Source of the DNA: Planctomycetota bacterium
Lineage (GTDB): Bacteria; Planctomycetota; UBA8742; UBA2392
Direction: 5' to 3'
Length of the DNA: 64,000 nt
NCBI GenBank assembly: GCA_020845475.1
Contig: JADLFN010000049.1
Coordinates: forward strand, 3,062-67,061
This document shows positions 3,791-44,204 of this stretch, piece after piece. The notes beneath the pieces were generated by a model. The model saw only the letters and a program-made list of their open reading frames with translations. It had not been told where the DNA came from and did no database searches. Each line of letters begins with the position of its first letter. The stretch's first letter is position 1. Both the position numbers and the translations under genes were made by a program.

Positions 3791-3825
3791 AATTCAAAAT
3801 ACAGAATTCAAAATTCAAAATGGTA
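3791..3825. repeat. Heptamer-periodic tandem tract (aattcaa aatacag aattcaa aattcaa aatggta)
   Basis: Read directly. The 7-nt unit repeats 5 times in the intergenic gap between two minus-strand genes, next to a terminator hairpin. Confidence 0.7.
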
Positions 3826-3831
3826 AAAGCC

Positions 3832-3845
3832 GGCGGACGTCCGCC
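3832..3845 (-). terminator. Putative intrinsic terminator of the 3877..4638 gene
   Basis: Perfect palindrome ggcggacgtccgcc about 30 nt past the stop. On the minus strand it is followed by GGCTTTTACCATTTTG (T-rich). Confidence 0.5.
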
Positions 3846-3876
3846 TTGGGTTGCTGTCTGAGCTTGTCGTATTGAA

Positions 3877-4638
3877 TCAGATCAGCCGGCAGACGATGCG
3901 GGCTTCCAGCGGATCTCGGGCGCGCTCATCTACTCCGCGCAAGAGTTCCATGATGTCGAAGCCGCGCATGGCCAACACCTGGGTTTCGCAGCCGGGCAGG
4001 CGTTCAAGGAACCCAAATGCATCGCCGGGCGCCTGAATGAAACCCTCGGCGCGCGAATAGCGCGCGTACAGTCGGGCATGGGCCGCAATAAAGTGAGAGG
4101 TGCGCACGGCTGGGTTCTCAATCACCAGCCCCGCGCACATGGAGCCGGGGTAATTGCCGTTGAACGCAAGCGTGGCCTGCACGGCGCCGGTGCCGGCGTG
4201 GGGCGCCGCGGCGGCCAGGGCTTCCATGGCACGCCCGCCAGTGACGCAAAAGCGCACGCTCGAAATGCGCAGTTCGCGATTGTCGCGCGATTCAAGGCGT
4301 TTGCCCAGGGCGCGCCCTGCGAGCGTGTTGGTGGCCGCAAGATACTCGGCGATTTTCTGCCGGCCAATGCGCCAGGCCAGATCGTCGAGCAAAAACAGGC
4401 ATGTCAGAAGCACGCTTTCTCCCTGGCGTGCGGCTTTGCCTACTTCATAGGCGGAGGAGCGGCCTTCAACGTGGCCAACACACAAAGCGCGATTATTGCG
4501 CTCGAGCCGGTCGCACAGATAGCTGACAAAGCGCCTCGCCTCAAAGCTGGCGTCGCGCGCGGGTGAGCGGCGCAAGGCCTGTTCAAACTGGCGCGAGAGA
4601 CGCGCGGAGGCAACGGCATCAACGACGAGCGTGGACAT
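3877..4638 (-). CDS. Hypothetical protein
   Basis: 253-aa ORF in a coding-like frame with no family recognised. The overlapping plus-strand ORFs look like GC artefacts. Confidence 0.5.
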   Translation of the reverse strand: MSTLVVDAVASARLSRQFEQALRRSPARDASFEARRFVSYLCDRLERNNRALCVGHVEGRSSAYEVGKAARQGESVLLTCLFLLDDLAWRIGRQKIAEYLAATNTLAGRALGKRLESRDNRELRISSVRFCVTGGRAMEALAAAAPHAGTGAVQATLAFNGNYPGSMCAGLVIENPAVRTSHFIAAHARLYARYSRAEGFIQAPGDAFGFLERLPGCETQVLAMRGFDIMELLRGVDERARDPLEARIVCRLI

Positions 4639-4664
4639 GCGAGAGTCCTTGCCGGGAGTGGTGT

Positions 4665-5402
4665 TTACTTGCTGCGCAGAATGGAGACTGCGACCGGGTC
4701 ATCGGGCGTTTCACACACGAGGCGCAACTCGCCATCCTCCAGCGCGAAGATGCGCGAGGCCGAACCGGATTTCTGCTGCCACACGGTGAACACTTCCTGT
4801 GAGCCATCGCCATCGACGTCGCGGGCGAACAGCCCAAGCAAAACCTCGCCGCGAGGTGCCGCATAGGAGGCAACGGCGCTGGCGCCGGGTTGGCCCGCCG
4901 CAAACACGCTGATGGTGGTGCAGAAGTCCTCCCCGACGCTGGCTGTGCAGTATGCGCCGGCGGGGAACACCTTGCGGTCAGATTGAAGCAGCGTGATGCG
5001 CACGGCGCTTTCTTCCGGCATCGTGCGAGCGGCAATGTCCTCGATCGGTGCAGGCTCGGCCTTGGCCACCGGCGCAGCGATGGGTTGCGTGCTGACAACG
5101 AGCGGAATCTTGATCGTGGTGCCGCTGGTGAGCGCGTCGCCCTCTTTGAGGTTGTTGGCGTGGGCGATTTCGGTCCAGCGACGGCCATTGCCGTAGAAAC
5201 GGTCGGCCAGGCCCCAGAGCGTGTCGCCGGGCTGAACGCGGTAAACGATTTCGCGCCGCTGCAAATCCACGCTGACCTGCGCGTATTGCTCGGGCGTGGC
5301 GGCGCTGGCGTCGGTCATGCGATCGAGGCCGAGCTTGACCAGCATGACTGTGGCGACGAGTACCACGAAGCCGACGAGCAGCGTGAGGATGTTGTTGCGC
5401 AT
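4665..5402 (-). CDS. LysM domain-containing membrane-anchored protein
   Basis: LysM motif YRVQPGDTLWGLADRFYGNGRRWTEIAHANNL...IKIP. TM helix ILTLLVGFVVLVATVMLV follows the internal Met at 5402. The ORF track extends it to 5540, but that extension is Arg/Thr-rich and unlikely to be real. Confidence 0.7.
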   Translation of the reverse strand: MRNNILTLLVGFVVLVATVMLVKLGLDRMTDASAATPEQYAQVSVDLQRREIVYRVQPGDTLWGLADRFYGNGRRWTEIAHANNLKEGDALTSGTTIKIPLVVSTQPIAAPVAKAEPAPIEDIAARTMPEESAVRITLLQSDRKVFPAGAYCTASVGEDFCTTISVFAAGQPGASAVASYAAPRGEVLLGLFARDVDGDGSQEVFTVWQQKSGSASRIFALEDGELRLVCETPDDPVAVSILRSK

Positions 5403-5653
5403 GGAATTCCTGGAAGTTGGAGGAGTCTCCGCCGTTGGGCGGTGTGTCAGTTCCTCATCGGCGAATCGAAGCGTGTAAGTTGAAAGATTCTCTGCATGTT
5501 TCTGCTCGCGCGCTTGCGCGACACACTTCGTGCAGGGCAACGCAACGGGCGCGGCTGATAAGCCGCGCTTGGTTGCGTGAGCTGAGAATTAAAGGCCCGG
5601 GCGGATGGGAGAAAAGGAAGACGGGAGCAGGAGGGGATCCGCCCGGGTCTGTG

Positions 5654-6025
5654 TTATGCGTTGATGATGTTCTGGAGCTTGAGCACTTCGGCGATGACGA
5701 GATCTGTGGCGTCGTCAAGGTGGGCGTGTTCAACGGGGGCATCGGCATACACGGCTTCAAAGCCGTGAATTGCCTGAAGGTTGAGGAACGCCTGGTTGAA
5801 AATCGCGTTCGCCTGCGAAATCAGCGATTGAGCAAGCAGGCTTTCGGAATTCAGGCCGGAGTCAACGATTGCACGGTAAGCGTTGATGTGCGCGAAGACG
5901 TCGTCGATGCGAACGCGCACCTGCGCGCTCAGCTTGGCGGGCTCCTGACGTCCGCTGGGAGCCTGGCCCCAGTCGATGTTGAGAAGGCGTTCAGAAACCT
6001 GCTTGTCCGTTTTGACGGTGGACAT
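5654..6025 (-). CDS. Hypothetical protein (123 aa, helical)
   Basis: ORF adjacent to an AT-rich divergent promoter region. No family recognised. Confidence 0.45.
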   Translation of the reverse strand: MSTVKTDKQVSERLLNIDWGQAPSGRQEPAKLSAQVRVRIDDVFAHINAYRAIVDSGLNSESLLAQSLISQANAIFNQAFLNLQAIHGFEAVYADAPVEHAHLDDATDLVIAEVLKLQNIINA

Positions 6026-6226
6026 GATGAACTCCAGATTGGCGAATAGAGAGAGGCGGCATTGTGTGTCGCCAAAGGAGATATACTCCGTGCTTTACGA
6101 ATCGTCAATTACGACTCAAATAGCGTTCGAATATGAACTTCCGATAAAAGGCTAGATCATGCAAGCGCTCGTGGATGGATTTCGAATGACCACAACCTAT
6201 TGGGTAGCGACAATCCAGACGAAACC

Positions 6227-6242
6227 ATGAAAATATTTTCAT
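6227..6242. promoter_or_regulatory. Perfect 16-bp palindrome ATGAAAATATTTTCAT in an AT-rich divergent intergenic region (candidate operator)
   Basis: Read directly. It lies within the roughly 360-nt AT-rich gap between divergent genes 5654..6025(-) and 6390..6566(+). Confidence 0.4.
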
Positions 6243-6389
6243 TTTTCAGGACGCATCGTTTTGCGGCGCCACCTGCGTTCGGTTTTTCCGGCCGGATTCC
6301 GGGAATTAACTCAAGTTGTGCTGGCGCGACGCATGGTTGACGTTGTGCGCGAGGCTGCTACCATTCCCGCCCTCAAAAAGGAGCAAGTC

Positions 6390-6566
6390 ATGTCGCGTCA
6401 CGCTTCACTGAAAGTCAGCGCCCTCACCACCGCAAACCGCAGCGTGCTCAAGCGCCAGGAACGCATCAATCAGCTTACCGTCGAGCGCCGCTGGAAAGAC
6501 GGCGACGACGTTACCGGCCTGCCCAAAACCAAAGTCCACGGCAAGGTCAAAGCCAAGAAGGCCTAG
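6390..6566 (+). CDS. Small basic protein (PVC-type small basic protein family, TIGR04137-like)
   Basis: 58 aa, MSRHASLKVSALTTANRSVLKRQERINQLTVERRWKDGDDVTGLPKTKV... AGGAG lies 6 nt upstream of ATG 6390. The ORF-track start at 6261 is an unlikely extension. Confidence 0.65.
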   Translation: MSRHASLKVSALTTANRSVLKRQERINQLTVERRWKDGDDVTGLPKTKVHGKVKAKKA

Positions 6567-6584
6567 TCAAACGAACCAGCCAAA

Positions 6585-6609
6585 AGGCGGGCTTCGGCCC
6601 GCCTTTTTT
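6585..6609 (+). terminator. Rho-independent terminator
   Basis: Stem ggcgggc / gcccgcc with loop ttcg, followed by TTTTTT, 19 nt after the stop of the small basic protein. Confidence 0.8.
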
Positions 6610-6683
6610 CGTGTGAGCTCAACGTGACGATTGAACTGTTTCAAACGCTTGGCCTTGCGCTCGCGTGGCGCTAACCTTGGCGC

Positions 6684-7796
6684 GTGGCTGATCCCTTCAA
6701 ACTTGCTGATCGCATTCACCTGCTGCAGCCCAGCGGCATTCGCAAGTTTTTTGAGCTTGGCCAGTCGATGAAGAATCCCATCGACCTCTCCATCGGCCAG
6801 CCTGATTTCGATGTGCCCGACCTTGTCAAAGACGCCGCTGTCAACGCCATCCGTTCCGGCAAAAACCGCTACACCGTCACGCAGGGCATTGAGCCTTTGC
6901 GCAAGGCGCTCAAGGAGCGCTACGCCAAACGTTTCAAGGGCGTTGAGGAAGAAGACGTGATCGTGACGGCGGGCGTGGGCGGTGCGCTGTTGCTCAGCTT
7001 CTTCGCGCTGCTCAATCCCGGCGACGAAGTGCTGATTCCTGATCCGTACTTCGTGATGTACCGCCACCTCGCTTCGCTCGTCGGCGCGCGTGCCGTTACG
7101 TTTGATACCTACCCGGATTTTCGCGTCACAGCCGCGCGCATTGCGCCCTTCATTACCTCCAAAACGCGCGCGATCGTGATCAACAGTCCGAGCAATCCCA
7201 CGGGCGCAACGCTGAGCGAGCAGGATGCGCGCGAGATTGCAGCGCTGGCGGAGAAGCACGGGCTCGTGATCATCAGCGACGAGATTTACGAAGAATTCAT
7301 CTACGAAGGCCGCCACGTAAGCTGCCGGGAGTTCACGGGCAATTGCATCGTGCTCAGCGGCGCGAGCAAAAGCATGGGCATGCCCGGCTGGCGCATGGGC
7401 TGGATGCTGGGGCCGCGCGAGTTCATAGAGCGCTGCTACATCGTGCAGCAGTTCACGTTTGTGTGTGCGCCGAGCATGGCGCAGCACGGCGTGCTTGCGG
7501 GGCTTAACGCGGACTTCACGCGGCATCTTTCCGACTATCGGCGCAAACGAGAGATTGTGTGCGCCGGCCTCTCGAAAAAATACGCGATGCAAAAGCCGGG
7601 CGGCGCGTTTTACGCTTTCCCCAGGTTGCCCGATGGTGTCAAGGCGGACGAGTTCATAAAGGCTTGCATTGCGCGTGAGTTGCTTGTGGTTCCTGGCGGC
7701 GCGTGCTCAACGCGCGACACGCACGTGAGAATCAGCTATGCCGCGCCGGACGAGAAGTTGGTGAAGGCTGTGAGCATTTTGAACGAACTTGCCTGA
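6684..7796 (+). CDS. Pyridoxal-phosphate-dependent aminotransferase, class I (aspartate aminotransferase-like)
   Basis: 370 aa, GTG start. Contains LLQPSGIRKFFEL, NSPSNPTG, and the PLP-lysine region SGASKSMGMPGWRMGW. Confidence 0.85.
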   Translation: MADPFKLADRIHLLQPSGIRKFFELGQSMKNPIDLSIGQPDFDVPDLVKDAAVNAIRSGKNRYTVTQGIEPLRKALKERYAKRFKGVEEEDVIVTAGVGGALLLSFFALLNPGDEVLIPDPYFVMYRHLASLVGARAVTFDTYPDFRVTAARIAPFITSKTRAIVINSPSNPTGATLSEQDAREIAALAEKHGLVIISDEIYEEFIYEGRHVSCREFTGNCIVLSGASKSMGMPGWRMGWMLGPREFIERCYIVQQFTFVCAPSMAQHGVLAGLNADFTRHLSDYRRKREIVCAGLSKKYAMQKPGGAFYAFPRLPDGVKADEFIKACIARELLVVPGGACSTRDTHVRISYAAPDEKLVKAVSILNELA

Positions 7797-7806
7797 AGCG
7801 CAGTCC

Positions 7807-7890
7807 GATTTTGGACTTTTGATTCTGGATTTTGGATTGGAGCGCAATCGCGCCAACCCGTTTTGCAGTTCAATCGAAAATCCAAAATGA
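7807..7890. repeat. Heptamer-periodic inverted-repeat element (arms 7807..7841 and 7862..7890)
   Basis: Arm 1 is gattttg gactttt gattctg gattttg gattgga. Arm 2, cagttca atcgaaa atccaaa atgaggt, is its imperfect reverse complement, with a spacer of about 20 nt. Confidence 0.75.
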
Positions 7891-7897
7891 GGTGCGT

Positions 7898-9466: not shown

Positions 9467-9477
9467 GTGCGGAGTGC

Positions 9478-10554: not shown

Positions 10555-10563
10555 GAGTCTTCC

Positions 10564-15978: not shown

Positions 15979-17187
15979 TCATGCGGCCTGAGGCGTGAGC
16001 CGCGCGCCCGGGCGCGGCGACTCCATGGCATTGGCCTCTTCCTGCAGCAGTTGTTCTGCGCGTTGCGGGCTGACGGCCTGGCGCGCCACAGACAGCGCCA
16101 CTCCGACACTGCATAGATAAAAGAATGCGCCGCTTCCGCCGAAGCTGACGAACGGCAGGCCAATTCCCTTGGTCGGAACACTGGCCGTAACGACCGCTAT
16201 GTTCATGCACGCCTGAATACCGATGCTCGCCGTGACCCCCAAGGCCAGCAGGCTTCCCAGTGGGTCAGGCGCGCGGGCTGAGACTCTCCAGCCCAGCAGC
16301 ATCAGTGAACCGAACAGCAGCAGAGTGAAGCAGGCGCCGACAAACCCGGTTTCCTCGGCCAGCACCGCGAAAATAAAATCTGTTTCCTGCTCGGGCAGGT
16401 AATAGAGCTTTTGCGTGGATTGGCCCAGGCCTTCGCCTTCAAAGCCGCCACTGCCGATGGCGATCATTGACTGCTTGACCTGGTGGCCTTTTCCCAGCGG
16501 GTCAGATTCGGGGTTCAGGAACGTGAACACGCGCTCTTTGACGTGATCGAACTTCACGAACATGACGCCCGCCGCAAGAGGCAGCATCAGCAGTGCCACA
16601 ATTGCCAGATGGCGCGGGCTGAGGCCCGCGGCCAGCAGCACCAGAAAGCCGGTCAGTCCCAGAAACAGGCTTGTGCCCAGATCGGGCTGCGCCATCGTGA
16701 CAACCGAGTACGCGCCGATGAACAGGCACGCCGGAACGAAGCCGCGCGCAAAGGTGCCAATTTCGCTTCGGCGCGCTGCTCCAAAGGCCGCAGCGCCGAT
16801 GATCAAGGCGAACTTGGCGTAATCACTGGGCTGAATGCCGACTCCGCCAAAGCGGATCCAGCGCGATGCGCCGTTGTATTTGGTGCCAATACCGGGAACG
16901 AGCGTGAGTATGAGCAGCACGAGGCCCAGCAGGTAGAGCGGTTTGGCCAGTTTCGCCAGCGTGTGGTAATCCATGCGTGCAAGCACGGTCATGGCGCCCA
17001 GACCAAGCCCGAGAAAAATCAGGTGGCGCTTGATGAAGATAAACGGGTCGGCGTCGCTTCCCGGCATCACGGAAATCGCGCTGCTGGAAAACACCATGAC
17101 CACGCCCACGCCCACAAGGGCGAGCACGTTGACGAGATAAGCGTTGCGTAGTGAGTTCTGCATTTTGGGTGAGCGCAAAGCGCCCAC
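15979..17187 (-). CDS. ftsW: SEDS-family peptidoglycan polymerase / lipid II flippase FtsW
   Basis: About 10 TM segments, with FIFAVLAEETGFVGA and the C-terminal GLPFVSFGGSG motif, in the dcw context. Alternative start: Met at 17163. Confidence 0.8.
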   Translation of the reverse strand: MGALRSPKMQNSLRNAYLVNVLALVGVGVVMVFSSSAISVMPGSDADPFIFIKRHLIFLGLGLGAMTVLARMDYHTLAKLAKPLYLLGLVLLILTLVPGIGTKYNGASRWIRFGGVGIQPSDYAKFALIIGAAAFGAARRSEIGTFARGFVPACLFIGAYSVVTMAQPDLGTSLFLGLTGFLVLLAAGLSPRHLAIVALLMLPLAAGVMFVKFDHVKERVFTFLNPESDPLGKGHQVKQSMIAIGSGGFEGEGLGQSTQKLYYLPEQETDFIFAVLAEETGFVGACFTLLLFGSLMLLGWRVSARAPDPLGSLLALGVTASIGIQACMNIAVVTASVPTKGIGLPFVSFGGSGAFFYLCSVGVALSVARQAVSPQRAEQLLQEEANAMESPRPGARLTPQAA

Positions 17188-17401
17188 TCCGATTCGTCAA
17201 TTCGCGCACGAAACTTGAACACGAAGGAACGAAGAAGCGAAGAACCGCAATGCGCAGGGATGTACAGGACGTTCAGGAGTTCAATAAGAAGGCAAAGCCC
17301 GCTGTCGCCGCAGCACGACGTGTATTGCGTTGGTAACGAATGAACGGCGTGGCGCGAACCTGCCGTTGTCTTGAATGCCTGCGCCGCGTCCGTTGGTGCA
17401 T

Positions 17402-19050: not shown

Positions 19051-19336
19051 GCTTTGTGCTCCTGGCGCTCAAAAGCGCCAACGGGGACGGAGACCGGATA
19101 ATTGGTAGGGGCAGGGCTTGCATTGCCAATGGGGCAACGCAGGCTTTGCCTCTGCGGGCGGGATACCCCGCCCACAGAACCAATATACACCGTCCAAAGC
19201 ACAAATGCCCTGTCGGATACCCATTAGGCTCGACAGGGCTCCCGCATTACGAGGTTATGCAAACGTCGGGCCAGAATGTGTCATCGCCTGCAAGGTGGCT
19301 TCGCAGGCGGCTTGGGCGTTACGGGCGATACGGGGA

Positions 19337-19472
19337 GGTGACTTGTGCCAGGTGGTTGGTGACTCGTGCTTGGTGATTGGACTGGCCACTTGTCTCGGCG
19401 CGTCCATTGATCCAAAGGTGTTTACCAGCCACCAGCCACCAGCCACCAGCCACCAGCCACTATCCACCAGTT
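19337..19472. repeat. Heptamer-periodic inverted-repeat element (arms 19337..19385 and 19424..19472)
   Basis: Arm 1 is ggtgact tgtgcca ggtggtt ggtgact cgtgctt ggtgatt ggactgg. Arm 2 is accagcc x5, actatcc, accagtt, the imperfect complement. Arm 2 abuts the ffh stop codon. Confidence 0.75.
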
Positions 19473-20946
19473 ACAAATCGACCTTGAACTTGTTGCGGAA
19501 CTCGGCAAAGTCTTCGGCCGCCGGGCGGCGCAAATTCGGCTTGGCGCGCTTTTTGGAGCCGCCCTGCATCTTGGCCTGCTCGGCGAGCATCTTCTTCTTG
19601 TCGCGGCTCATCTTCCATGCCGTGGCCTTGCCCATAAGGCCCTGGTTCTTCAAGCCCTGCACCATGGTGCGCATCTGTTCAAACGCTTTGAGCAGGCGGT
19701 TCACTTCTTCGATGGTGCGCCCACAACCGCTTGATATGCGGCGCTTGCGGCTGGGGTTGAGCTGGTCGGGCAGGCGCCGTTCCTTGGGCGTCATCGATTT
19801 GATGATCGCCTCCACATGATCGAGACCCTTTTCGTTGATCTGGTCCAGGGGCAGCTCAGCCGCGCCGGGGATCATTTTCAGCAAGTCTTTCATCGGGCCC
19901 ATCTGCTTGATGGCCTTGATCTGGCTCAGGAAGTCCTCGAGCGTGAATTCATCCTCGATCAGCTTGCGCTCCAGCTCGACGGCTTCTTCTTCCTTGATCG
20001 CGGCCTGGGCCTTTTCCACGAGCGTAACGACGTCGCCCATGCCCAGGATGCGGCCAGCCACGCGATCAGCGTGGAAGACTTCCAGGCCATCGGGCTTTTC
20101 GCTCACGCCCACAAACCGGATCGGCTTGCCGGTAATCGCGCGCACCGTCATCACTGCGCCGCCGCGCGAATCGCCATCGAGCTTGGTCAGGATTGCGCCC
20201 GTCAGCGGCAGCTTTTCGTCAAATGCTTTCGCCGATTTCACGGCGTCCTGGCCGGTCATGCCGTCGCACACGAAAAAGACTTCATCGGGCGTGCAGGTGT
20301 CCGCAATCTTCTTCACTTCATCCATCAGGTCTTCATCGACGTGCAGGCGGCCGGCGGTGTCGAGTATGACAACGTCATGCGCATTCTTTTTCGCAAAGGC
20401 CAGCGCGTCGTTGCAGACCTTGACGGGGTTGCTGGCGCGATCGGCGAACACCGGCACCTGAATGCCCTTGCCGACCACTTCGAGCTGATCGACAGCGGCC
20501 GGGCGCTGCAAGTCCGCAGCCACGAGCAGCGGGTTTTTCTTGTGGATGCGCTTGAGATAGAGCGCAAGCTTGCCGCAGGTCGTGGTTTTGCCCGAGCCCT
20601 GCAAGCCGCACATCATGATTACGGTGGCGCGATCACCCCTGAAGTTCAATCGCGCGCGGCCTTTGTCATCAACGACATCCGGCGCGGACATCATGGAGAC
20701 CAGCTCGTCATGGACCGCCTTGACGAACTGCTCGCCCGGGCGCACGCCCTTGAGCACTTCGGCGCCCAGCGCTTTCTCTTTTACGCGCTCGGTGAATTCC
20801 TTGGCGATTTTCAGGGAGACGTCGGCCTCAAGCAGGGCGGTGCGGATGGCGCGCACGGCATCCTGAATGTTGGCCTCGGTGATTTCGGCATTGCCGGAGA
20901 GCTTGCGCCAGACCTCGGTGAAGCGTTTGGAGATGTTGTCGAACAT
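19471..20946 (-). CDS. ffh: Signal recognition particle protein Ffh
   Basis: MFDNISKRFTEVWRKLSG, GLQGSGKTTTCGKLA, DTAGRL, and an M-domain with a Met-rich region. The C-terminal tail is basic. Confidence 0.92.
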   Translation of the reverse strand: MFDNISKRFTEVWRKLSGNAEITEANIQDAVRAIRTALLEADVSLKIAKEFTERVKEKALGAEVLKGVRPGEQFVKAVHDELVSMMSAPDVVDDKGRARLNFRGDRATVIMMCGLQGSGKTTTCGKLALYLKRIHKKNPLLVAADLQRPAAVDQLEVVGKGIQVPVFADRASNPVKVCNDALAFAKKNAHDVVILDTAGRLHVDEDLMDEVKKIADTCTPDEVFFVCDGMTGQDAVKSAKAFDEKLPLTGAILTKLDGDSRGGAVMTVRAITGKPIRFVGVSEKPDGLEVFHADRVAGRILGMGDVVTLVEKAQAAIKEEEAVELERKLIEDEFTLEDFLSQIKAIKQMGPMKDLLKMIPGAAELPLDQINEKGLDHVEAIIKSMTPKERRLPDQLNPSRKRRISSGCGRTIEEVNRLLKAFEQMRTMVQGLKNQGLMGKATAWKMSRDKKKMLAEQAKMQGGSKKRAKPNLRRPAAEDFAEFRNKFKVDL

Positions 20947-21710: not shown

Positions 21711-24347
21711 GTGGGTAATCCCGCGACGCCGCTACAGAGGGGCACAAGCCCTGAGAGTGCCATGAACAACGCCTCCGGCGCCAACGCGCCCAAGCTGCAT
21801 TCGAATTTGCAACTTCGCGCCGGTGACCACACCCCCGGCGCCTATCGTCCGTCCAAGGGCCAGCCCTTTGATCGCCTCGAGCGCGGCGGCCACGTGGACG
21901 ACGCCGAACTTCTCTCCGGAAAACTCACGCCCGATGGCCACTCGGTGCCGCATGAACGCCGCGCCGAACAAGCCGCGCTCAACGCCAAGTGGCTTGTTGA
22001 AGAACGCGAACGCCTGCGCGCGAGCAAAGGCGAGCCCGTAGCCTATGCACAAGCCAGCGCCAGCGAGCAATCGCCGGGCCTTGAATACGCCGACCTCGAA
22101 AAGTTCCTCGCCTCACGCAAGGCCCTCAACAACGCGGGCGAAAAGGATCTCGAGGCCAAAGCCGCGCGCGCGCAGGAATATGCGGCGAAACTGGCGGCGG
22201 AATATTATGCGAAGTCAGAGGTCGGAGGTCAGGGGCCTGAAGTTGAAACCAATTCAGAATTCAGAATTCAGAATTCAGAATTGCCTGCTCGCACTGCGTT
22301 CCTGCCAACTTCGCGCGCCGACATGGACGCAAAAGGTTGGGCCGCCTGCGACTTCATCCTCGTCAGCGGCGACGCTTACGTTGATCACCCCAGTTTCGCC
22401 AACGGCGTGATTTCGCGCGTGCTCGAGTGGGCCGGCTTCAAGGTGGGCATCATTGCGCAGCCCGATTGGCGCAACCTCGACGACATCAAGCGCCTGGGCG
22501 CACCCCGGCTGGGTTTTCTGGTGGGGGCGGGAAATCTCGATTCGATGCTCAACGCCTACACGGCGCACAAGCTGCCGCGCAGCGATGACCCCTATTCGCC
22601 CGGCGGCAAAGCCGACGCGCGGCCTCAGCGCGCGACGATTGTGTACTGCAACCTGATTCGCCGCGCGTTCGGCAAGGCGCCCATCATCATCGGCGGCATG
22701 GAGGCCAGCCAGCGCCGCTTTGCGCATTACGATTACTGGGACGACCGCGTGCGCCGCAGCATCTTGCTCGATAGCAACGCCGACATGCTCGTGTTCGGCA
22801 TGGGCGAAACGCAGATTGTCGAAGTCGCGCACCGCCTCAACGGCGGCGAAAAAATCCACGAGATCAACGACGTGCGCGGCACGGCCATCGTGCGCAAGGA
22901 TGTTTCGTTTCTCGACGCGCCGGGCTTCGTGGAGCGCTTCGGCAAAGCCCAGTTCACGATGGCGTACGAGACGCTGCTTCCGCCGAGGTATCAGGTATCA
23001 GGTGTCAGGGATCAGGAAAAGCCCGATACCCGAAACCCGAACCCTGATACCCAGGCCGATCGTGTTCAAGAACACCAAGACACCGGCCCGCACGCCATCC
23101 CCGCCTATCGCAAGAACTACGCGATCACCTTCAAACAGCTTTACGACGAGCAGGACCCCGTGCGCGGCCGGCCCGTGGTTCAGCCAACGGGCGCGCTGCA
23201 TGTGGTCCAGCTTCCGCCGGCGCGCTTGCAAAGCGAAGCCGAGCTCGACCGCTGGTACGACCTGCCCTACACGCGCATGCCGCACCCGGATTACGATGCC
23301 AAAGGCGGCGTGCCTGCGTGGCTGACCACGCAGCACACGATCGTGACGCACCGCGGCTGCATGGGCTCGTGCACCTTCTGCGCAATCTGGATGCACCAGG
23401 GCCGCACGATTTCGAGCAGAAGCATCGAGAGCATTGAGCGCGAGGCGCAAGCCATCACCCACATGCCCAGCTTCAAGGGCTATATCTCGGACGTGGGTGG
23501 GCCCACGGCGAACATGTATGGCAACTATTGCAGCGTTCAACAAACCCTGGGTGCGTGCAAGGAGCGTGACTGCCTGCTGCCTGATCCATGCCCCGCGCTG
23601 CGGCAACACCTCGACAAGCAAGTGGAAATGTTAAGCCGCGTGCGCGCGGTGCCCGGCGTGAAGAAAGCGTTCATCGCCAGCGGCATCCGTTACGACATGC
23701 TGATCGACGAGAAAACGACCAAGGGCTGCAGCGACCAATATATTGAGAACCTCGCGGCGCATCACACGTCAGGCCACCTGAAAGTGGCGCCCGAGCACAC
23801 CAGCGATCAGGTGCTTGCGAGAATGCGCAAGCCGAGCTTCGCCAAGTACGAGATTTTCAAGCAGCGTTTCGTGGATGCCAGCAAGCGCGTGGGCAAAGAG
23901 CAGTATCTAGTCGCCTACTTCGTGAGCAGCCACCCCGGCTGCACCATGGAAGAGCAGATCGCGCTAGCCGAGTATTTCAAGAAAAGCGGGTGGAGCCCCG
24001 AACAGGTGCAGGATTTCATTCCCACGCCCATGACGCCTGCGACGGCGATGTTCTATTCCGGCTTCGACCCCGAGACGATGCAGTACGTCTACACACCCAC
24101 GACGATGCGCGAAAAGCGCCGCCAGCGCGCGCTGATGCAATTCAAAAAGCCCGAGTTCCAGGGCCGCGTACGCAAGGCCCTGCGCGAAGCCGGCCGCAGC
24201 GAACTCATCGGCAAAGGCCCGCAAGCGCTGGTGCCGCCCGGCAACGAAGAAGACTGGGAAGACGACAACCCCCGCCGCCCCGCCGGCATCGGCAGCGGGC
24301 CGGGCACGTTCAAGCCGCGCAAAGCCTATCGTGGCAAGCGCAGATAG
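21711..24347 (+). CDS. ygiQ: YgiQ-family radical SAM protein (UPF0313) with an unusual ~190-aa N-terminal extension
   Basis: The core begins FLPTSRADMDAKGWAACDFILVSGDAYVDHPSF, matching the E. coli YgiQ N-terminus as recalled. Radical SAM motif GCMGSCTFC. The extension has a coding-like GC3 pattern, and the true start is uncertain (ATG 21762, or TTG near 22283). Confidence 0.8.
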   Translation: MGNPATPLQRGTSPESAMNNASGANAPKLHSNLQLRAGDHTPGAYRPSKGQPFDRLERGGHVDDAELLSGKLTPDGHSVPHERRAEQAALNAKWLVEERERLRASKGEPVAYAQASASEQSPGLEYADLEKFLASRKALNNAGEKDLEAKAARAQEYAAKLAAEYYAKSEVGGQGPEVETNSEFRIQNSELPARTAFLPTSRADMDAKGWAACDFILVSGDAYVDHPSFANGVISRVLEWAGFKVGIIAQPDWRNLDDIKRLGAPRLGFLVGAGNLDSMLNAYTAHKLPRSDDPYSPGGKADARPQRATIVYCNLIRRAFGKAPIIIGGMEASQRRFAHYDYWDDRVRRSILLDSNADMLVFGMGETQIVEVAHRLNGGEKIHEINDVRGTAIVRKDVSFLDAPGFVERFGKAQFTMAYETLLPPRYQVSGVRDQEKPDTRNPNPDTQADRVQEHQDTGPHAIPAYRKNYAITFKQLYDEQDPVRGRPVVQPTGALHVVQLPPARLQSEAELDRWYDLPYTRMPHPDYDAKGGVPAWLTTQHTIVTHRGCMGSCTFCAIWMHQGRTISSRSIESIEREAQAITHMPSFKGYISDVGGPTANMYGNYCSVQQTLGACKERDCLLPDPCPALRQHLDKQVEMLSRVRAVPGVKKAFIASGIRYDMLIDEKTTKGCSDQYIENLAAHHTSGHLKVAPEHTSDQVLARMRKPSFAKYEIFKQRFVDASKRVGKEQYLVAYFVSSHPGCTMEEQIALAEYFKKSGWSPEQVQDFIPTPMTPATAMFYSGFDPETMQYVYTPTTMREKRRQRALMQFKKPEFQGRVRKALREAGRSELIGKGPQALVPPGNEEDWEDDNPRRPAGIGSGPGTFKPRKAYRGKRR
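22213..22283. repeat. Heptamer-periodic tract inside the ygiQ ORF (gtcagag gtcggag gtcaggg ... attcaga x4)
   Basis: Read directly. It is translated in frame as SEVGGQGPEVETNSEFRIQNSEL, just upstream of the conserved YgiQ N-terminus. Confidence 0.7.
22987..23056. repeat. Heptamer-periodic inverted-repeat element inside the ygiQ ORF
   Basis: Arm 1 is ggtatca ggtatca ggtgtca gggatca; loop ggaaaag; arm 2 is cccgata cccgaaa cccgaac cctgata. It is translated in frame as YQVSGVRDQEKPDTRNPNPDTQ. Confidence 0.75.
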
Positions 24348-26599: not shown

Positions 26600-26709
26600 G
26601 ATTCCTCCACCAAAGGTAGTTGCAGTCTATGCTGCCAGGCTCCTCTTTCTATGGTCCGCGCGATGTCATAGGCCATTGGCCTGAGTGTGCAGCGAAGGGC
26701 TCTTGGCGC

Positions 26710-29313: not shown

Positions 29314-30621
29314 TCAGGCCTTCTTGCCGCGCGTGAGCCAGCTGAAGAACTGGTCGGTCTCGAACGTGTTGGTGTCGTTGGCGAGGCGCACGATGGTGAT
29401 GCCGGCTTCGCGTGAGATCATGAGCCTCTGTTTGCCCTTTCCTGCGGCGTAGATCAGATCTTTGGGCACGCCGGCATCCGTCGTGGCGACTTTGCCTTCG
29501 CTTTCGCCGTCTTCATCGGCGCCGCCGCCGAGCCACCAGGTCAGGCCGTAGTTCTTGTTGGCTTTGCTGGGCTTGAAGCACTCGTCCATGAGTTCTTGCT
29601 TCAACAACTGTTTGTCGCCTAGTTTGCCGCCAAGCCGCACCCATTCGCCGAACTTGGCCCACTCGTTTGCCGTGATAAACACGCCGTGCGGCACGTGGGG
29701 GTTGCCGGCGGCGTCGGTGCGCCACGTCAGTTTCATGCCCAGGGGCTCGCCCACTTTGCGCATGAAGTAGCTCTTGATGTCTTCCTTCTTCTCTTTGAGT
29801 TTGCGTTTGACGATTTCGCCAAAGCAGTAGTACTGCGCGGGGCCGTATTCGAATCTCTTGCCCGGCTCGTGCTTGCATTTCAGCGCAATGGCGTAGGCGT
29901 ATTTATCTTTGGTGCCCGCGCCTTGCAGCGCATCCTGCTCCGGCGGCAGGCCTGCGCAGAGTGAGAGCAACATGCGGATCGTGATTTTCTCGCGCGCGTC
30001 GCCTTTCCATTCGGTGAGCGTTTCGCAGGCGAGTTCGTCCCACTTCAGCAGGCCTTCTTCGACCATCAGCGCGGCTACGATGCCCGAGAAACTCTTCGTG
30101 CCACTGGCGAGTTCGTGTTCGCGCTTGGCGTCGTAGCCGTTGTCGGTGCAATCGAGCAGGACTTTGCCGTCCTTCATGATCAGCAGCGCTTCGCCGTTCG
30201 TAGCCGCGTTGTAATCGCGCGCGGCTTGCAGGAAGAGCCCGCTGGCTTCATCGCGCTTGTAGTCGGATTTCATCAGCTTGCCGATGTCGCGTTTGGTGTT
30301 CTTGCCTTTTTCGCGCGGCTGGGCGTTGGCTACGGCCTCGGCCGCTTTGTTGAGTTCGTCGCCGGCGACAAAACCATCGCCGTCGGTGTCAAAGTTCTTG
30401 AAGGAAGCGCGCGCACGCTCGGGCAGTTCGCTTTCGGAAAGCTTGCCGTCCTTGTTGGCGTCAAAGCGATCGACGAGCGATTTGGCGCCGTCGGAAAGTT
30501 CGACGGGCTTTTGTTCGTCGGGCTTTTGTTCGTCGGGCTTGGGCTCGGCGGGAGCTTCCTGGGCCAAAGCGAGCAACGAAAGCCAGCTCAAAGCCAGCAA
30601 CGAAAGAGCAAATCGCAACAT
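29314..30621 (-). CDS. Exported EF-hand-containing serine hydrolase (beta-lactamase family)
   Basis: Starts MLRFALSLLALSWLSLLALAQE (GGAGG upstream of the ATG at 30621). PDEQK tandem repeat. EF-hand loops DANKDGKLSESE and DTDGDGFVAGDE. SxxK motif ELASGTKSFSG. Confidence 0.7.
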   Translation of the reverse strand: MLRFALSLLALSWLSLLALAQEAPAEPKPDEQKPDEQKPVELSDGAKSLVDRFDANKDGKLSESELPERARASFKNFDTDGDGFVAGDELNKAAEAVANAQPREKGKNTKRDIGKLMKSDYKRDEASGLFLQAARDYNAATNGEALLIMKDGKVLLDCTDNGYDAKREHELASGTKSFSGIVAALMVEEGLLKWDELACETLTEWKGDAREKITIRMLLSLCAGLPPEQDALQGAGTKDKYAYAIALKCKHEPGKRFEYGPAQYYCFGEIVKRKLKEKKEDIKSYFMRKVGEPLGMKLTWRTDAAGNPHVPHGVFITANEWAKFGEWVRLGGKLGDKQLLKQELMDECFKPSKANKNYGLTWWLGGGADEDGESEGKVATTDAGVPKDLIYAAGKGKQRLMISREAGITIVRLANDTNTFETDQFFSWLTRGKKA

Positions 30622-30745
30622 GGCTACCTCCGTGATGGCTATGAAACACCGCAGCGCCTTACAGGTTGCGCATCTGACGCTGTTCATGCTGCGCTTTTCG
30701 TGGCTCCGCGCCATGAGGAATGGACGGGCAGCTTGCCGCTTGATT

Positions 30746-39815: not shown

Positions 39816-39840
39816 GGGTATTGCGAACGATCCAGGAGCA

Positions 39841-41115: not shown

Positions 41116-41294
41116 GGCGCGGCAGGATAGCGAGGGCCGGGGCAGATTTACAGTGCTGAGTGGGAGGCTTTGGGCGCACCCGGCCCGCACGGGCGAACAA
41201 GGCCCCGCGTTTCAAACTCGTGATAGCCGCGCCGGAATTCCCAACGGGGCGAGCGAGGTTTAACTATATTGTGCGTAACACGGAGTGGCGGACG

Positions 41295-41912
41295 ATGGCG
41301 GACAATTTCAATCTCGACATCCTGATCAAGTCCATCAAGGATCTGCGCAACATGGAGTTGGCGCGCCAGTTGCGTGAGGTGCTGCGCACGCAAGATCTCG
41401 GCGGCATGGACACGGGCCTGATTTCCGAGCTGGTCGAGGAACTCGAGAACGATCTGGAAGAACACATATCGCGCCTGGAGCGCATCTGCGCAGTGCTCAC
41501 CGCCGAAGAGCGCCTGCGGCCCGAAAGCATGAACCACGCTCGCCAGCAGGAAGTGGCCTGGCAATCCAAGTGCGACCCGGATGAAGTGCAGGGCGTGTGT
41601 GAGGCCTTTGCACGCGCACGCGAACTGCTGGGCTCCATGGGCACGGGTGAACGCCAAAACCTTGATCTGCGCGTGCTGCTCACCAATCTTGGCGGCGTGA
41701 TGGGCCTTGAGGCTGTCAAGGAAACGCCGCAGGGCCTGCAGTTCACGCCCGAGTTTCTCCAGAAGCTGATGCAAAAGGGCATGGCCGGGCCAAAGGCCGG
41801 CGTCCCCGCGCGCAAACCCAACAGGGAACTGGCTGATTTCGAGGCCCAGTTCGACTTGGAGCAGCCGGCCCAGCCCAAGAATCGGCTACCGAAAGATTGG
41901 CGGGCCAAGTAG
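41295..41912 (+). CDS. Hypothetical protein (205 aa, acidic/helical)
   Basis: ATG at 41295 with GGAG about 8 nt upstream. MADNFNLDILIKSIKDLRNMEL... No family recognised. Confidence 0.5.
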   Translation: MADNFNLDILIKSIKDLRNMELARQLREVLRTQDLGGMDTGLISELVEELENDLEEHISRLERICAVLTAEERLRPESMNHARQQEVAWQSKCDPDEVQGVCEAFARARELLGSMGTGERQNLDLRVLLTNLGGVMGLEAVKETPQGLQFTPEFLQKLMQKGMAGPKAGVPARKPNRELADFEAQFDLEQPAQPKNRLPKDWRAK

Positions 41913-41948
41913 CCCGTCTCGAGATCCAAACCTTGCCAAGACCTGACC

Positions 41949-42041
41949 GATTCTCGATTCTCGATTTTCGATTTTCGATGGGCTCTGCCACGGCGTGGGT
42001 GCGCAGGTCGGCACTCGATAGTCGAAAATCCAAAATCAGCG
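41949..42041. repeat. Heptamer-periodic inverted-repeat element (arms 41949..41983 and 42014..42041)
   Basis: Arm 1 is gattctc gattctc gattttc gattttc gatgggc. Arm 2 is ctcgata gtcgaaa atccaaa atcagcg. Arm 2 shares tcgaaaatccaaaat with the element at 7862..7890. Confidence 0.75.
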
Positions 42042-42113
42042 GCCGGCCCTTGTCAGAACTTCACGGCGTCGCTACTCTCTCGCCCCTCAATTCTGATTCC
42101 GGAGAGATGTCTG

Positions 42114-42404
42114 ATGGTGACGCTTCGCATGACTCGCACGGGCCGCAACAAGCACGTGACCTTCCGCCTGGTAGCCTGCGACTCGCGCAGCCCCCGCGAT
42201 GGCCGGCATATCGAGATTCTCGGCCACTACGACCCGCACAAGAAGGAAGATCCCAAGCTCACGTTCAACAAGGAACGCGTGGAACATTGGCTCGGCCTGG
42301 GTGCACAGCCCTCGCTGTTGGTCAGCAACCTGCTTCGCAAGCAGGGCATCAATGGCAAGACCACGCGCGAACTGCGCCAGAAGGCTTCCGGCAAGCGCGC
42401 CTAG
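42114..42404 (+). CDS. rpsP: 30S ribosomal protein S16
   Basis: MVTLRMTRTGRNKHVTFRLVACDSRSPRDGRHIEILGHYDP...ERVEHWLGLGAQPS, canonical S16. Confidence 0.92.
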   Translation: MVTLRMTRTGRNKHVTFRLVACDSRSPRDGRHIEILGHYDPHKKEDPKLTFNKERVEHWLGLGAQPSLLVSNLLRKQGINGKTTRELRQKASGKRA

Positions 42405-42493
42405 CGACTCTTGCCGCTGTTCTGCTGCTTCTCAACTTCGGGGTGTTGGGCTGCACCGGCCCCACACCCCGTGATCTTGATAGAGACGCCACC

Positions 42494-43198
42494 ATGGAGG
42501 CGCGGGCCCGCGAATATGCGGCTCCCGTGCGTCCGCCCCTTGAGCCCGCGCCACAGTCGCAAGCGCCTTCGGCCCCCGTCCTTGAACAGTACGCCAAAGA
42601 CCTGGCCTCCAGCACGCCCCTGGTGCGCATGCAGGCCGCCAATCGCCTTCGTCAGGCGCAGGTTGCGGGTGTGCAGGCCTGCCTGCGCGTTCTTGATAGC
42701 GCCGAGTCGGCCGTGGCAGGGGCCATCTTGCGCTTCCTGGCCACGCTCAACCTTGAGGACATCGGTGCCGAGCCACAGGGTGCCGTGCGCCTTGCCGCGG
42801 CGCGCCACCTGAAATCTCCCGATGTGTCGCTGCGTGTCGCGGCTGCGCAGTTGCTGTGCGCCACGGGCCCGGGCCCGACGCGCACGGAGTTTTTGGCCGC
42901 AATCGTTGATCCCGAGCGCAAAGTGCGCTGGGCTGTGGTGCGCCGCTTTGCCGAATTCGCACACGAGCTTGAGAACGCCCAGCTCATGGTCCTGGTCAGC
43001 TTCCTGGCTGACGCCAAGCTTGGCAGCGCCACGCGCAACGATGTTCACACCTTGCTGCTTGCCGTGTTCGAGAAGTTTTCGCGCGGCTTGCGCCCCGAAG
43101 GATACGACCCCTACGCCGAGCCCAAGGATCAGCGCGCAGCTATCGCGGCCTGGGAGGCCTGGGCGCGCGGCGTGGCCATATCCCCGACGCCCCGTTGA
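42494..43198 (+). CDS. HEAT-repeat-like protein (possible lipoprotein; true start uncertain)
   Basis: Repeats such as PLVRMQAANRLRQ, SPDVSLRVAAAQLL and DPERKVRWAVVRRF. The same frame upstream encodes LATLAAVLLLLNFGVLGC (lipobox-like) but has no ATG/GTG/TTG before it. Confidence 0.5.
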   Translation: MEARAREYAAPVRPPLEPAPQSQAPSAPVLEQYAKDLASSTPLVRMQAANRLRQAQVAGVQACLRVLDSAESAVAGAILRFLATLNLEDIGAEPQGAVRLAAARHLKSPDVSLRVAAAQLLCATGPGPTRTEFLAAIVDPERKVRWAVVRRFAEFAHELENAQLMVLVSFLADAKLGSATRNDVHTLLLAVFEKFSRGLRPEGYDPYAEPKDQRAAIAAWEAWARGVAISPTPR

Positions 43199-43249
43199 GA
43201 ATTGCATGCTTTGACGCTACAAGTTCTGGCCGATTTCAATGGAGCCAAG

Positions 43250-44125
43250 ATGGCGAGTGTACGTGACCTGCAGGCCAAGGCAAAAAAACTGCTCTCCAAC
43301 TGGAAGCGCCAGATCGATCCGGCTCTCAAGAAGGATAACCGCAGCACGGTCACGCACCTGTGCCTGACCGTGCTGATGCGCAATTCCAGTTACAAGACGG
43401 CGCACGCCGCCGTGCAGGCACTGCGTGAGCGCTTTGCTGACTGGAACGAAATCCGCGTAACGCCCATCGCCGAAGTGGCCGTGGTGCTCGAGGATGCGTC
43501 AGTGCCCGAGCCGCGCGCCAAGGCATTTTCGCTGCGCCGCTTTCTGCGCGACCTGTTCAGCAAGTACACGAAGACCAACCTGAACTTCGACAAGATTGAA
43601 GTGCCCGAAGCGCCCGTGGTTCTTCCGCCCAACAAGGACGGCACGCCCGCAGTGCAGCCTGCTTCGGACGATGATGACGAAGACGGCGAGGAACACACTA
43701 CGCGCGAAAGCGGTTTGCCGCTGCATCCCACCGTGCCCGGCTACGTGGACGGCGACAAGATCATGACCGATCCGATCCCGCTCGATCCCAAACTGATCAT
43801 CGAGAAAAACGGAATCCACGTTGCGGGGATTGCCTACGACGACGCCACGCGCGGCCCATTTGGCGCGATCTGGAAAGTGGCGCTCGCCAACGGGCTGGTC
43901 GAGCCGGAACTCGACGCCTTTGCCGCGCTGGGCCGCTTGCGCCAGGTCATGCCCGAGAAGGAGCCCGCCGCCTTCGCGTTCTATTGCATCCTGCACGCCC
44001 AGGAAAACTGGGCCGAAGTCACCAAGAAGGCCGACGCACTGCGCGAAAAATACGGCCCCGTTGATAAGGAAGAAGAAGAGGAAGAAGACGAGGCCGAAGG
44101 CAAGAAAGCCAAGGCAAAGAAGTAG
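43250..44125 (+). CDS. Hypothetical protein with acidic/lysine-rich tail (weak endonuclease III/HhH-like resemblance)
   Basis: ATG at 43250 with GGAG 5 nt upstream. LTVLMRNSSYKTAHAAVQALRERFADWNEIRVTPIAEV...; C-terminus KEEEEEEDEAEGKKAKAKK. Confidence 0.45.
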   Translation: MASVRDLQAKAKKLLSNWKRQIDPALKKDNRSTVTHLCLTVLMRNSSYKTAHAAVQALRERFADWNEIRVTPIAEVAVVLEDASVPEPRAKAFSLRRFLRDLFSKYTKTNLNFDKIEVPEAPVVLPPNKDGTPAVQPASDDDDEDGEEHTTRESGLPLHPTVPGYVDGDKIMTDPIPLDPKLIIEKNGIHVAGIAYDDATRGPFGAIWKVALANGLVEPELDAFAALGRLRQVMPEKEPAAFAFYCILHAQENWAEVTKKADALREKYGPVDKEEEEEEDEAEGKKAKAKK

Positions 44126-44130
44126 CGTGA

Positions 44131-44204
44131 GTTCAGATTTCAGAAATCAGAGCTAATGCTGCGCCGGATAGAGCCTCTTCTGAATTCTGAATTCGGAGAA
44201 TCAT
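44131..44204. repeat. Heptamer-periodic inverted-repeat element (arms 44131..44153 and 44175..44204)
   Basis: Arm 1 is gttcaga tttcaga aatcaga gc. Arm 2, cttctga attctga attcgga gaatcat, is its imperfect complement, upstream of sucD. Confidence 0.7.

Follow-up and report, generated by a model that had tools for sequence, protein, structure and literature searches.

Heptanucleotides are the most abundant class of long simple sequence repeats (SSRs) in many bacteria (Mrazek 2007, as summarised in PMC4679880); heptamers head the long SSR classes of many large, GC-rich genomes, show an intergenic bias and have prompted a polymerase-slippage hypothesis (Mrazek, Guo & Shah 2007, as summarised in PMC4679880 and PMC4692102). 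Xanthomonas genomes each carry about 185 tracts of the unit GGGAATC, with four units preferred and 70-75 in convergent inverted pairs (Rehm et al. 2015, PMC4692102). These tracts are enriched between ORFs (open reading frames) in aligned orientation, and within 50 bp of starts and stops, are rare in coding or divergent positions, are mostly transcribed, and vary in length and sequence among close relatives (Xcc versus Xac); the convergent pairs present the G-rich strand first and are capable of forming stem-loops (PMC4692102). Here we analyse tandem 7-nt repeats, commonly arranged as the complementary arms of a hairpin, in a 64-kb stretch of Planctomycetota DNA (~62% GC; GenBank assembly GCA_020845475.1, contig JADLFN010000049.1), hereafter the window. 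We consider it probable, at roughly 0.6, that these are heptanucleotide SSRs grown in place by slippage and template switching into quasi-palindromic stem-loops, tolerated in transcribed spacers and protein linkers; any role they play would be that of a generic hairpin, and only at some sites.

Cyanobacterial STRR heptamers (Mazel et al. 1990) and the TAACTGA repeats of Beggiatoaceae lie in transcribed intergenic spacers, often directly upstream of starts, and have a sporadic phylogenetic distribution and no established function (PMC4679880). 'Maribeggiatoa' carries TAACTGA in 169 direct sets versus 1 inverted (MacGregor 2015, PMC4679880). The elements described here likewise comprise tandem heptamers in intergenic spacers, often close upstream of starts, and they too are phylogenetically sporadic. 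STRR and TAACTGA repeats are built of few fixed units per genome and are nearly all direct, whereas here the units are locus-specific and ~80% form inverted pairs. With the Xanthomonas repeats the Planctomycetota elements share ~4-unit tracts, convergent inverted pairs, placement between aligned ORFs and proximity to starts and stops; unlike those repeats and the Nostoc GGGGA(C/T)T family, they have many unrelated units, mostly without G-runs, and a Planctomycetota host, two of them occupy translated linkers, and turnover of the unit is documented at orthologous sites. The window units do not fit the G-rich consensus GGGNATC or GGGGAYT. Heptamer class, proposed slippage origin and intergenic bias are common to these elements and the long SSRs of Mrazek, while the inverted-pair architecture, arm polarity and coding-linker occupancy go beyond Mrazek 2007, judged from summaries.

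Two further classes invite comparison. Repetitive extragenic palindromic (REP) sequences and bacterial interspersed mosaic elements (BIMEs) are imperfect palindromes in transcribed spacers between co-directional or convergent genes and are thought to act as generic mRNA stem-loops; REPs have a genome-wide consensus, are linked to REP-associated tyrosine transposases (RAYTs) and have no internal 7-nt period. The window elements are also imperfect palindromes in transcribed spacers between genes, but they lack a common consensus and have an internal 7-nt periodicity. A CRISPR array, with 23-50-nt repeats and unique spacers, can be rejected, as the original prediction had already reasoned from the missing spacers, since the units are 7 nt long and contiguous. 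The same prediction set the architecture apart from CRISPR, ordinary REP elements and simple microsatellites; that it is without precedent is not supported, since the Xanthomonas GGGAATC pairs share it (PMC4692102). The Planctomycetota elements are a multi-sequence version of the Xanthomonas and cyanobacterial heptamer repeats and not a new category. In searchable texts, a coverage that most subscription journals fall outside, we found no paper tying heptamer repeats to Planctomycetes.

Period-7 tracts and their paired arms

Period-7 tracts were sought with Tandem Repeats Finder (TRF) and two lag-autocorrelation scans. Period 7 is the sole over-represented short period in the window: a strict run-finder returned 4 runs at period 7 and 0 at each other period from 4 to 12. 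A relaxed lag scan returned 6 period-7 runs, whereas 50 first-order Markov simulations gave 0.26 on average and never more than 1; the refuting outcome named beforehand, tracts no commoner than chance, is thus not borne out. TRF gave tracts of 4.3-6.7 copies, and eight heptamer loci were counted (Table 1). Lag-7 identity reaches 0.35-0.44 in six intergenic spacers, compared with ~0.25 at other lags; locus A, absent from the list originally drawn up, has a value of 0.43 (0.25 at other lags). As in long SSRs, the 7-nt copies lie head to tail and are longer and more frequent than chance, and six of the eight loci are intergenic even though intergenic DNA makes up only ~8% of the window, an enrichment in non-coding DNA.

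The units in the window are GATTTTG, CGATTCT, TTTTGAA, AATTCAG, GGTATCA, GGCTGGT and AGTTCAG. Across this Planctomycetota clade, in which 7-nt tandem tracts of ~3-7 units are common, at least 10 unrelated units were found, from 14% (AATTCAA) to 86% (GGCGGCA) GC, most of them without a G-run. The AT-richness first ascribed to the units applies to most, though not to ACCAGCC (71% GC). Units of the GATTTT[GC] type recur at four of the eight window loci (10 near-matches versus 1.05 expected) and are also present in L001, L002 and L086, L numbers being our labels for fetched related loci or contigs. The Firmicute YgiQ loci L003-L080 (1.3 Mb) served as a control; there, period 7 yielded 37 tracts compared with 8-16 for the other periods that are not multiples of 3 (4, 5, 8, 10 and 11), in line with reports that heptamer SSRs are generally in excess among bacteria.

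True inverted pairs are formed at C, E, G, H and I, and the three longest inverted repeats in the 64 kb are the heptamer hairpins G, C and H, that of G being the longest. When the window and all fetched Planctomycetota relatives were pooled (252 kb of loci), 33 of 42 tracts had a complementary 21-mer (at least 16/21) within 120 nt, against 0/42 for a reverse-only and 4/42 for a complement-only control; the arms therefore pair far beyond chance, as had been proposed. The inter-arm gap is 5-36 nt at most loci, within the 5-40 nt originally given, and exceeds that range at 19337 (E), where it is 78 nt.

Dinucleotide-shuffle z-scores of the minimum free energy (MFE) lie between -3 and -8 on at least one strand for 7807, 19337, 22987 and 41949: C scores -3.1 on the plus and -4.0 on the minus strand, E -4.0 on the sense strand, and G -5.7 on the plus and -7.9 on the minus strand. 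The predicted folding thus holds for C, E, G and H, is weak at I (44131; z ~ -1, yet the arms pair 16/21) and is not significant at A and F. Tract A folds no better than shuffles in the window; in L086 it is conserved with substitutions and its arms pair 16/21. Five entries of the original list are true hairpins (7807, 19337, 22987, 41949 and 44131) and two are not: 22213-22283 (F) consists of two direct tracts (GTCAGAG, TTCAGAA) with no significant fold, and 3791-3825 (B) is a single tract with no convincing partner arm (best 12/21).

Table 1. Heptamer loci of the window and the heptamer content of the two YgiQ linkers in the window and its relatives
Feature	Position or genome	Strand	Period-7 tracts (TRF and lag scans)	Organisation
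A	3004..3075	-	3008-3038 (TRF, period 7), 3050-3075	GATTTTC / CAATCGA-type units
B	3791..3821	-	3791-3821	single tract, sense unit TTTTGAA x4.4
C	7807..7888	+	7807-7838	hairpin: 5' arm GATTTTG-type x4.6, 3' arm AATCGAAAATCCAAAAT
E	19337..19470	-	19351-19380, 19424-19470	hairpin directly after ffh stop codon (19471-19473); sense 5' arm GGCTGGT x5, perfect; 3' arm degenerate (GTGACT / GTGGTT / GTGCTT-type)
F	22214..22282	+	22214-22232, 22251-22282	two direct tracts, GTCAGAG x2.7 and AATTCAG x4.6; not a hairpin
G	22986..23052	+	22986-23016, 23022-23052	hairpin: GGTATCA x4.4 / CCCGATA-TGATACC x4.4, gap 5 nt; in-frame translated
H	41948..42037	+	41948-41979	hairpin: CGATTCT / CGATTTT x4.6, then TCGAAAATCCAAAATC
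I	44130..44198	+	44178-44194	hairpin: AGTTCAG ATTTCAG AAATCAG, then CTTCTGAATTCTGAATTCGG
Linker 1	window			GTCAGAG + AATTCAG direct tracts
Linker 1	L083, L084			GGGTCTG / CCCAAGA hairpin
Linker 1	L001			GGCGGCA / TGCCGCC hairpin
Linker 1	L081, L082			decayed GGTCAGG / CCTGATA
Linker 2	window, L084			GGTATCA / TGATACC
Linker 2	L083			GAGATTC / GAACCTC
Linker 2	L001			(GGCGGCA)4 + (CCAAAAT)4, unpaired
Linker 2	L002			(CCAAAAT)4
Linker 2	L081, L082			nothing

The arms are ordered: of 20 independent hairpins, 17 lead with the G+T-rich arm and close with the A+C-rich one (binomial p = 0.003), tract I being among the few that do not open with a G+T-rich arm. This polarity is the same on both strands because the arms are inverted, and any transcript or single strand meets the G+U/T-rich arm first. 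In the Firmicute control loci, processed with the identical pipeline, the G+T-rich arm leads in only 5 of 20 hairpins and an A-rich arm comes first, as expected for terminators built of an A-tract, a stem and a T-tract. We infer that the polarity reflects a filter against terminator-like arrangements inside operons and genes. Intrinsic (Rho-independent) terminators were themselves rejected as an identity for the elements: a terminator and promoter consensus scan of the window gave no excess over shuffles, its sole terminator match in a heptamer hairpin being a small local stem at 7802-7817, and the arm polarity is opposite to that of the terminator-like Firmicute controls.

Searches for an RNA-level signature were negative. 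Sense-strand G.U and A.C mismatches number 14 and 11 (p = 0.69), giving no G.U excess, and sense and antisense MFE values reveal no signature, the coding-linker hairpins folding better as antisense. Over the entire window, Rfam 15 at gathering thresholds gave 0 matches and ARAGORN found nothing. With no Rfam match, no terminator consensus, no G.U preference and linker hairpins that fold better antisense, the evidence for an RNA function is positional only.

Change between strains and lineages

Copy-number change was followed in contigs from independent samples that encode an identical GT2, Ffh or 291-aa protein and match the window at about 99-99.9% identity. At tract E, the window and L104 carry 5 units and L107 carries 3, a difference of exactly 14 nt between identical flanks, and tract I carries one extra unit, CATTCAG (+7 nt), in L119. 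Copy number thus changes by whole units between close relatives at E and I. At tract F, L104 differs by three substitutions within 6 nt (GTCAGAG-GTCAGAA versus TCAGG-GG-CCTGA, a perfect 5-bp inverted repeat); this cluster reads as the classical signature of a quasi-palindrome template switch, in which either allele could be ancestral. Tract H exists as two alleles of equal length with 18 differences in 66 nt, compared with ~20 in the remaining 4.9 kb (~0.4% background); both fold as hairpins, and the 3' arm of the second is more regularly heptameric. The earlier suggestion of a slippage or templated process gains support from the changes at E, I and F. Tracts A and B are invariant in 10 samples, C in 4 (L094-L096 and L099, without indels) and G in one.

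At one site the whole element differs. In L105 (3469-4221) and L106 (2808-3560), which encode an identical Ffh, the E hairpin is replaced by a GC-rich hairpin, GGAGTGCGCCGGC...GCCGGCGCACTCC, between whose arms lies a 330-nt insert; this insert contains a Cys-rich ORF of 87 aa without a Pfam match. The same hairpin family is present in L083 and L084, and it looks like a second, unrelated palindromic element at the E site (window 19330-19470).

More distant comparisons place these changes in context. The window GT2 protein is identical to MCC6150536.1, and ~9.8 kb of the window gives a gap-free match of 99.85% identity to JAUQXV010000020.1 (GCA_030834465.1); within the GTDB collection, two Planctomycetota metagenome-assembled genomes with a YgiQ identity of 76-77% come closest at species level. 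The elements change very fast between relatives: orthologous sites usually keep a tract or hairpin but exchange its unit entirely, and their hairpins are either near-identical or beyond alignment. The site upstream of GT2 has TTTTGAA as its unit in the window, TTTTGCG x4.5 plus complementary sequence close by in L086 (95% aa identity) and CCTAAAA/CCTGAAA in L091 (70%), and L087 (86%) has a 27-nt tract-free spacer; the tract C site holds GATTTTC units in L086 and a 10-nt spacer in L087-L090. Downstream of ffh, each lineage aligned across the site has a large hairpin, the sequences are unrelated, and heptamers are present only in the window's lineage, with other hairpins after the stop codon in L083, L084 and L081. 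Retention of a hairpin with unrelated sequences fits the earlier notion that structure rather than sequence is recognised, and the comparison of orthologous regions proposed at the outset did yield presence and absence, unit swaps and 7-nt copy-number changes.

A sister lineage with 86-89% protein identity (L081, L082 and L087-L090; for example ERZ761602 NODE_430 and GCA_021463385.1) was examined for tracts. None was found in a contiguous 37 kb (~48 kb with L081), where ~6 would be expected at the window's density over the 37 kb. At sites A, B and C the spacers of this lineage measure 37, 27 and 10 nt, compared with 60-101 nt in the window. Given these short, tract-free spacers, the heptamer elements are dispensable insertions or expansions and not essential signals. 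The sister lineage is a natural negative control for whatever generates the tracts.

Gene context and the linkers of a YgiQ fusion protein

Genes were called from third-codon-position GC (GC3), Pfam matches and the gene tables of identical contigs. All six intergenic loci of the window lie between co-directional genes (within the GT2 operon, between hisC and ppx, between ffh and the next gene, between an M-domain gene and rpsP, and between the 291-aa gene and sucD), and the 4-5 divergent regions of the window (~2.3 kb in total) contain no heptamer locus. In the more distant relatives L091-L093, 12 of 13 tracts are likewise between co-directional genes.

Since A, C, E and I start 0-11 nt past a stop codon and A, B and C end 3-15 nt before a start, several elements fill the spacer from stop to start. 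Tract A occupies the entire 60-nt gap between the TGA stop of the GT2 gene (3062-3064) and the ATG of the next gene (3001), and B ends 15 nt upstream of the GT2 start codon (3775). Tract C extends from 11 nt past the hisC-like stop (7796) to 3-9 nt ahead of the ppx GTG start, H lies between the SRP54 M-domain-like gene (stop 41912) and rpsP (start 42114), and I runs from 6 nt after the stop of the 291-aa gene (44125) to 50 nt before the sucD start (44248). The placement beside stops and starts originally described does not apply to 22213 and 22987, which lie inside ORF 21759-24347. C and H have further sequence in common: both 5' arms start with CCGATT, and the identical 15-mer TCGAAAATCCAAAAT ends both 3' arms (7874-7888 and 42022-42036).

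Loci F and G both fall within ORF 21759-24347, which encodes a ~150-aa N-terminal extension fused in frame to a YgiQ (UPF0313) radical-SAM protein. The extension has no Pfam match and seems specific to this Planctomycetota clade; the fusion is also present in L001 (9491-12097) and in L081-L085, and both it and the reading frame are conserved in 7 full-length homologues with 70-91% identity. Tract F codes for the linker between the extension and the YgiQ body, and tract G is inside a ~50-aa insertion in the N-terminal half that clostridial YgiQ lacks. Both linkers are hypervariable islands within an otherwise ~90%-identical protein, and across 8 genomes they are in most cases built of heptamer tracts, with a different unit each time. 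In L084, two substitutions relative to the window unit make the linker-2 stem perfect. The linker-1 arm of L083 and L084, GGGTCTG GGGTCTT GGGACTG GGGTCTG, contains four G3-4 runs and is the only such case. The intragenic tracts are imperfect, and none of the 7 full-length homologues, nor strain L104, departs from the frame; their peptide output is arbitrary.

Other features of the window were recorded in passing. The 291-aa protein, whose function is unknown, ends in an acidic-lysine C-terminal tail, EEEEEEDEAEGKKAKAKK, encoded just before hairpin I by a GAA/AAG-rich run at 44067-44093 with period 3/6/12. The M-domain gene at 41295-41912, just upstream of rpsP, encodes a stand-alone 205-aa protein that matches only the SRP54 signal-peptide-binding (M) domain; full-length ffh is separate, at 19471-20946, and the M-domain protein may descend from the common ffh-rpsP arrangement as a remnant or a paralogue. 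A tandem repeat of period 15 (GTTCGTCGGGCTTTT x2.9, 96% matches) at 30498-30540, near the 5' end of the minus-strand ORF 29314-30714, presumably codes for a 5-aa repeat, and a perfect 32-nt palindrome (GAGCAGGGGCGACATA / TATGTCGCCCCTGCTC, no spacer) without heptamer period lies at 49214-49245, at the junction of the co-directional ORFs 48072-49208 and 49209-50195. Several candidate tracts were rejected. The stretch 17191-17246, once put forward as a weak candidate, has period 8 (ACGAAGAA x3) and no lag-7 signal; its sense unit, CTTCTTCG x3, directly precedes the start of the minus-strand gene 15979-17187. At 26600-26709, 45181-45248 and 45945-46096 the weak lag-7 signals come from ordinary sequence or ordinary GC hairpins, and 15980-16009 (CCTGCGG) is a chance GC-rich match within a gene.

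Origin of the repeats and competing explanations

Growth in place would proceed in few steps. Replication slippage with a 7-nt step would expand a seed, and intra-hairpin template switching (quasi-palindrome correction), weak selection for pairing, or both, would copy or keep the complementary arm. The product would survive where sequence is unconstrained but transcribed, that is, in co-directional spacers and in disordered protein linkers, the total length of linker tracts being kept a multiple of 3. Purifying selection would purge terminator-like arrangements and so leave the G+T-rich arm first and the A+C-rich arm second. At sites that benefit from a stem-loop, such as the one after ffh, where it would protect the 3' end, a heptamer hairpin may fill a generic role, and sequence and 7-nt period would then be by-products of construction and not a recognition code. 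Slippage shows directly in the 14-nt difference at E and the extra 7 nt at I between strains that are otherwise ~99.8% identical; templated change is suggested by the substitution cluster at F and the allele differences at H, and tolerance rather than need by the tract-free sister lineage. The period-7 excess, the pairing beyond controls, unit turnover with the architecture kept, arbitrary peptides in coding linkers, the missing G.U enrichment, the lack of terminator or Rfam identity, the arm polarity and the Xanthomonas precedent count on the same side.

Several points weigh against this account. The degenerate tracts A, B, C and G are unchanged across 4-10 strains (one strain for G), so the process is not fast everywhere, and the 7-nt step size is explained by none of the tests. 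Template switching is represented by one clear case (F) and one suggestive case (H), and recombination with a divergent allele could be the source of both the H alleles and the element swap at E. Mutation instead of selection could underlie the polarity bias, and the co-directional position bias and the retention of a hairpin at the ffh 3' end could equally reflect positive selection for a function. The pooled counts, finally, derive from loci and not from whole genomes.

The most substantial competitor, which we regard as possible but would back only tentatively, takes the elements to be selected RNA stem-loops in polycistronic mRNA that shield 3' ends against exonucleases, determine the stability or processing of mRNA segments, or couple translation. 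In the coupling version the hairpin would reach with its 5' arm to the upstream stop and with its 3' arm to the downstream start, and be opened by the terminating ribosome. In all versions heptamers would simply be how the arms lengthen. Co-directional placement (6/6 intergenic elements in the window and 12/13 in L091-L093, with none in divergent regions) speaks for such a role, as do the starts of A, C, E and I within 0-11 nt of a stop and the ends of A, B and C within 3-15 nt of a start, although a stop-to-start span is expected anyway if the spacer is the inserted tract. The hairpin that follows the ffh stop in each aligned lineage with unrelated sequences, the polarity opposite to that of terminator-like hairpins and the report that many bacterial transcript 3' ends are marked by stem-loops without U-tracts (PMC13613805) point the same way. 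The sense strand nevertheless has no G.U excess, the coding-linker hairpins fold better antisense, tracts are unpaired or direct at B, F and L001 linker 2, and a close sister lineage manages without any such element in spacers of 10-37 nt.

We consider it unlikely that the tracts are binding-site arrays recognised by a protein that takes single-stranded nucleic acid 7 nt at a time, such as one cold-shock-domain monomer per heptamer; by occupying the G+U-rich 5' arm, this protein would control hairpin formation. The constant period with ~4-5 units per arm, the G+T-rich arm leading on either strand and the T-rich GATTTT[GC] units at four of the eight window loci and in L001, L002 and L086 are as this proposal would have them, and CspB has been reported on heptamer repeats with one protein per unit and a preference for T-rich ones (PMC4679880). 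A range of 14% to 86% GC is hard to square with one reader, the protein is hypothetical, and neither the coding-linker tracts nor the total loss in the sister lineage is predicted. An extension of the idea, to which we give equally little credence, is a dedicated heptad reader or writer, for example an OB-fold (cold-shock-like) protein that coats the G+U-rich 5' arm co-transcriptionally, one monomer per 7 nt, and sets hairpin formation genome-wide. If true, this would be a post-transcriptional switch addressed by structure and period instead of sequence, and it would account for the constant period with arbitrary units, for ~4-5-unit arms without G-quadruplex potential, for the strand-independent polarity and, through loss of the factor, for the tract-free sister lineage.

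Small mobile hairpins of a REP/RAYT-like or miniature inverted-repeat transposable element (MITE)-like kind, inserting into spacers and linkers, are more improbable still. Whole elements do differ in presence or absence between lineages, the entire ffh 3' element is replaced between strains with identical Ffh, and C and H share the CCGATT 5' end and the 3' 15-mer. Yet there are no target-site duplications, neither a full-length consensus nor terminal repeats are shared across loci, length changes are whole 7-nt units inside the arms, the unit differs at almost every locus, and no transposase turned up beside the elements, no transposase search having been made. A MITE was rejected in particular since no duplications flank A, B, C and H relative to the empty L087 sites and the variation is internal, in 7-nt steps; a REP-type shared palindromic consensus was rejected since the arms differ at almost every locus and only GATTTT[GC] recurs (4 loci). 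Least credible of all, to our minds, is that the repeats form G-quadruplexes, the proposal made for the heptamers of Xanthomonas and Nostoc, or that they are contingency loci for phase variation. The four G3-4 runs of the L083/L084 linker-1 arm would suit the former and the strain-to-strain variation in copy number the latter. Against them, the 4-5-unit size holds although most units (GATTTTG, AATTCAG, GGTATCA, CGATTCT) have no G-run, and contingency loci were rejected on account of the housekeeping neighbours (ffh, rpsP, sucD, hisC, ppx) and of imperfect intragenic tracts that stay in frame in 7/7 homologues and in one strain covering both.

In many bacteria no long SSR class is commoner than heptamer repeats, yet these have no accepted origin or function. 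This clade is a cleaner test case than Xanthomonas or Nostoc. Because the same architecture is built from many unrelated units, mostly unable to form G-quadruplexes, neither G-quadruplexes nor a single sequence-specific binder explains it; the G-quadruplex rationale for a 4-unit size does not apply here, and the occurrence of ~4-unit size and convergent pairing without such potential weakens that explanation for Xanthomonas as well. Slippage, seemingly templated clusters and complete unit turnover are all visible between metagenomic strains, and through these elements the sequence of disordered protein linkers is itself determined, so that SSR dynamics feed directly into protein variation. The tract-free close lineage offers a natural comparison for finding the responsible factor, and if the polarity proves to be an anti-terminator filter, it would provide a simple general rule for the hairpins that operons tolerate.

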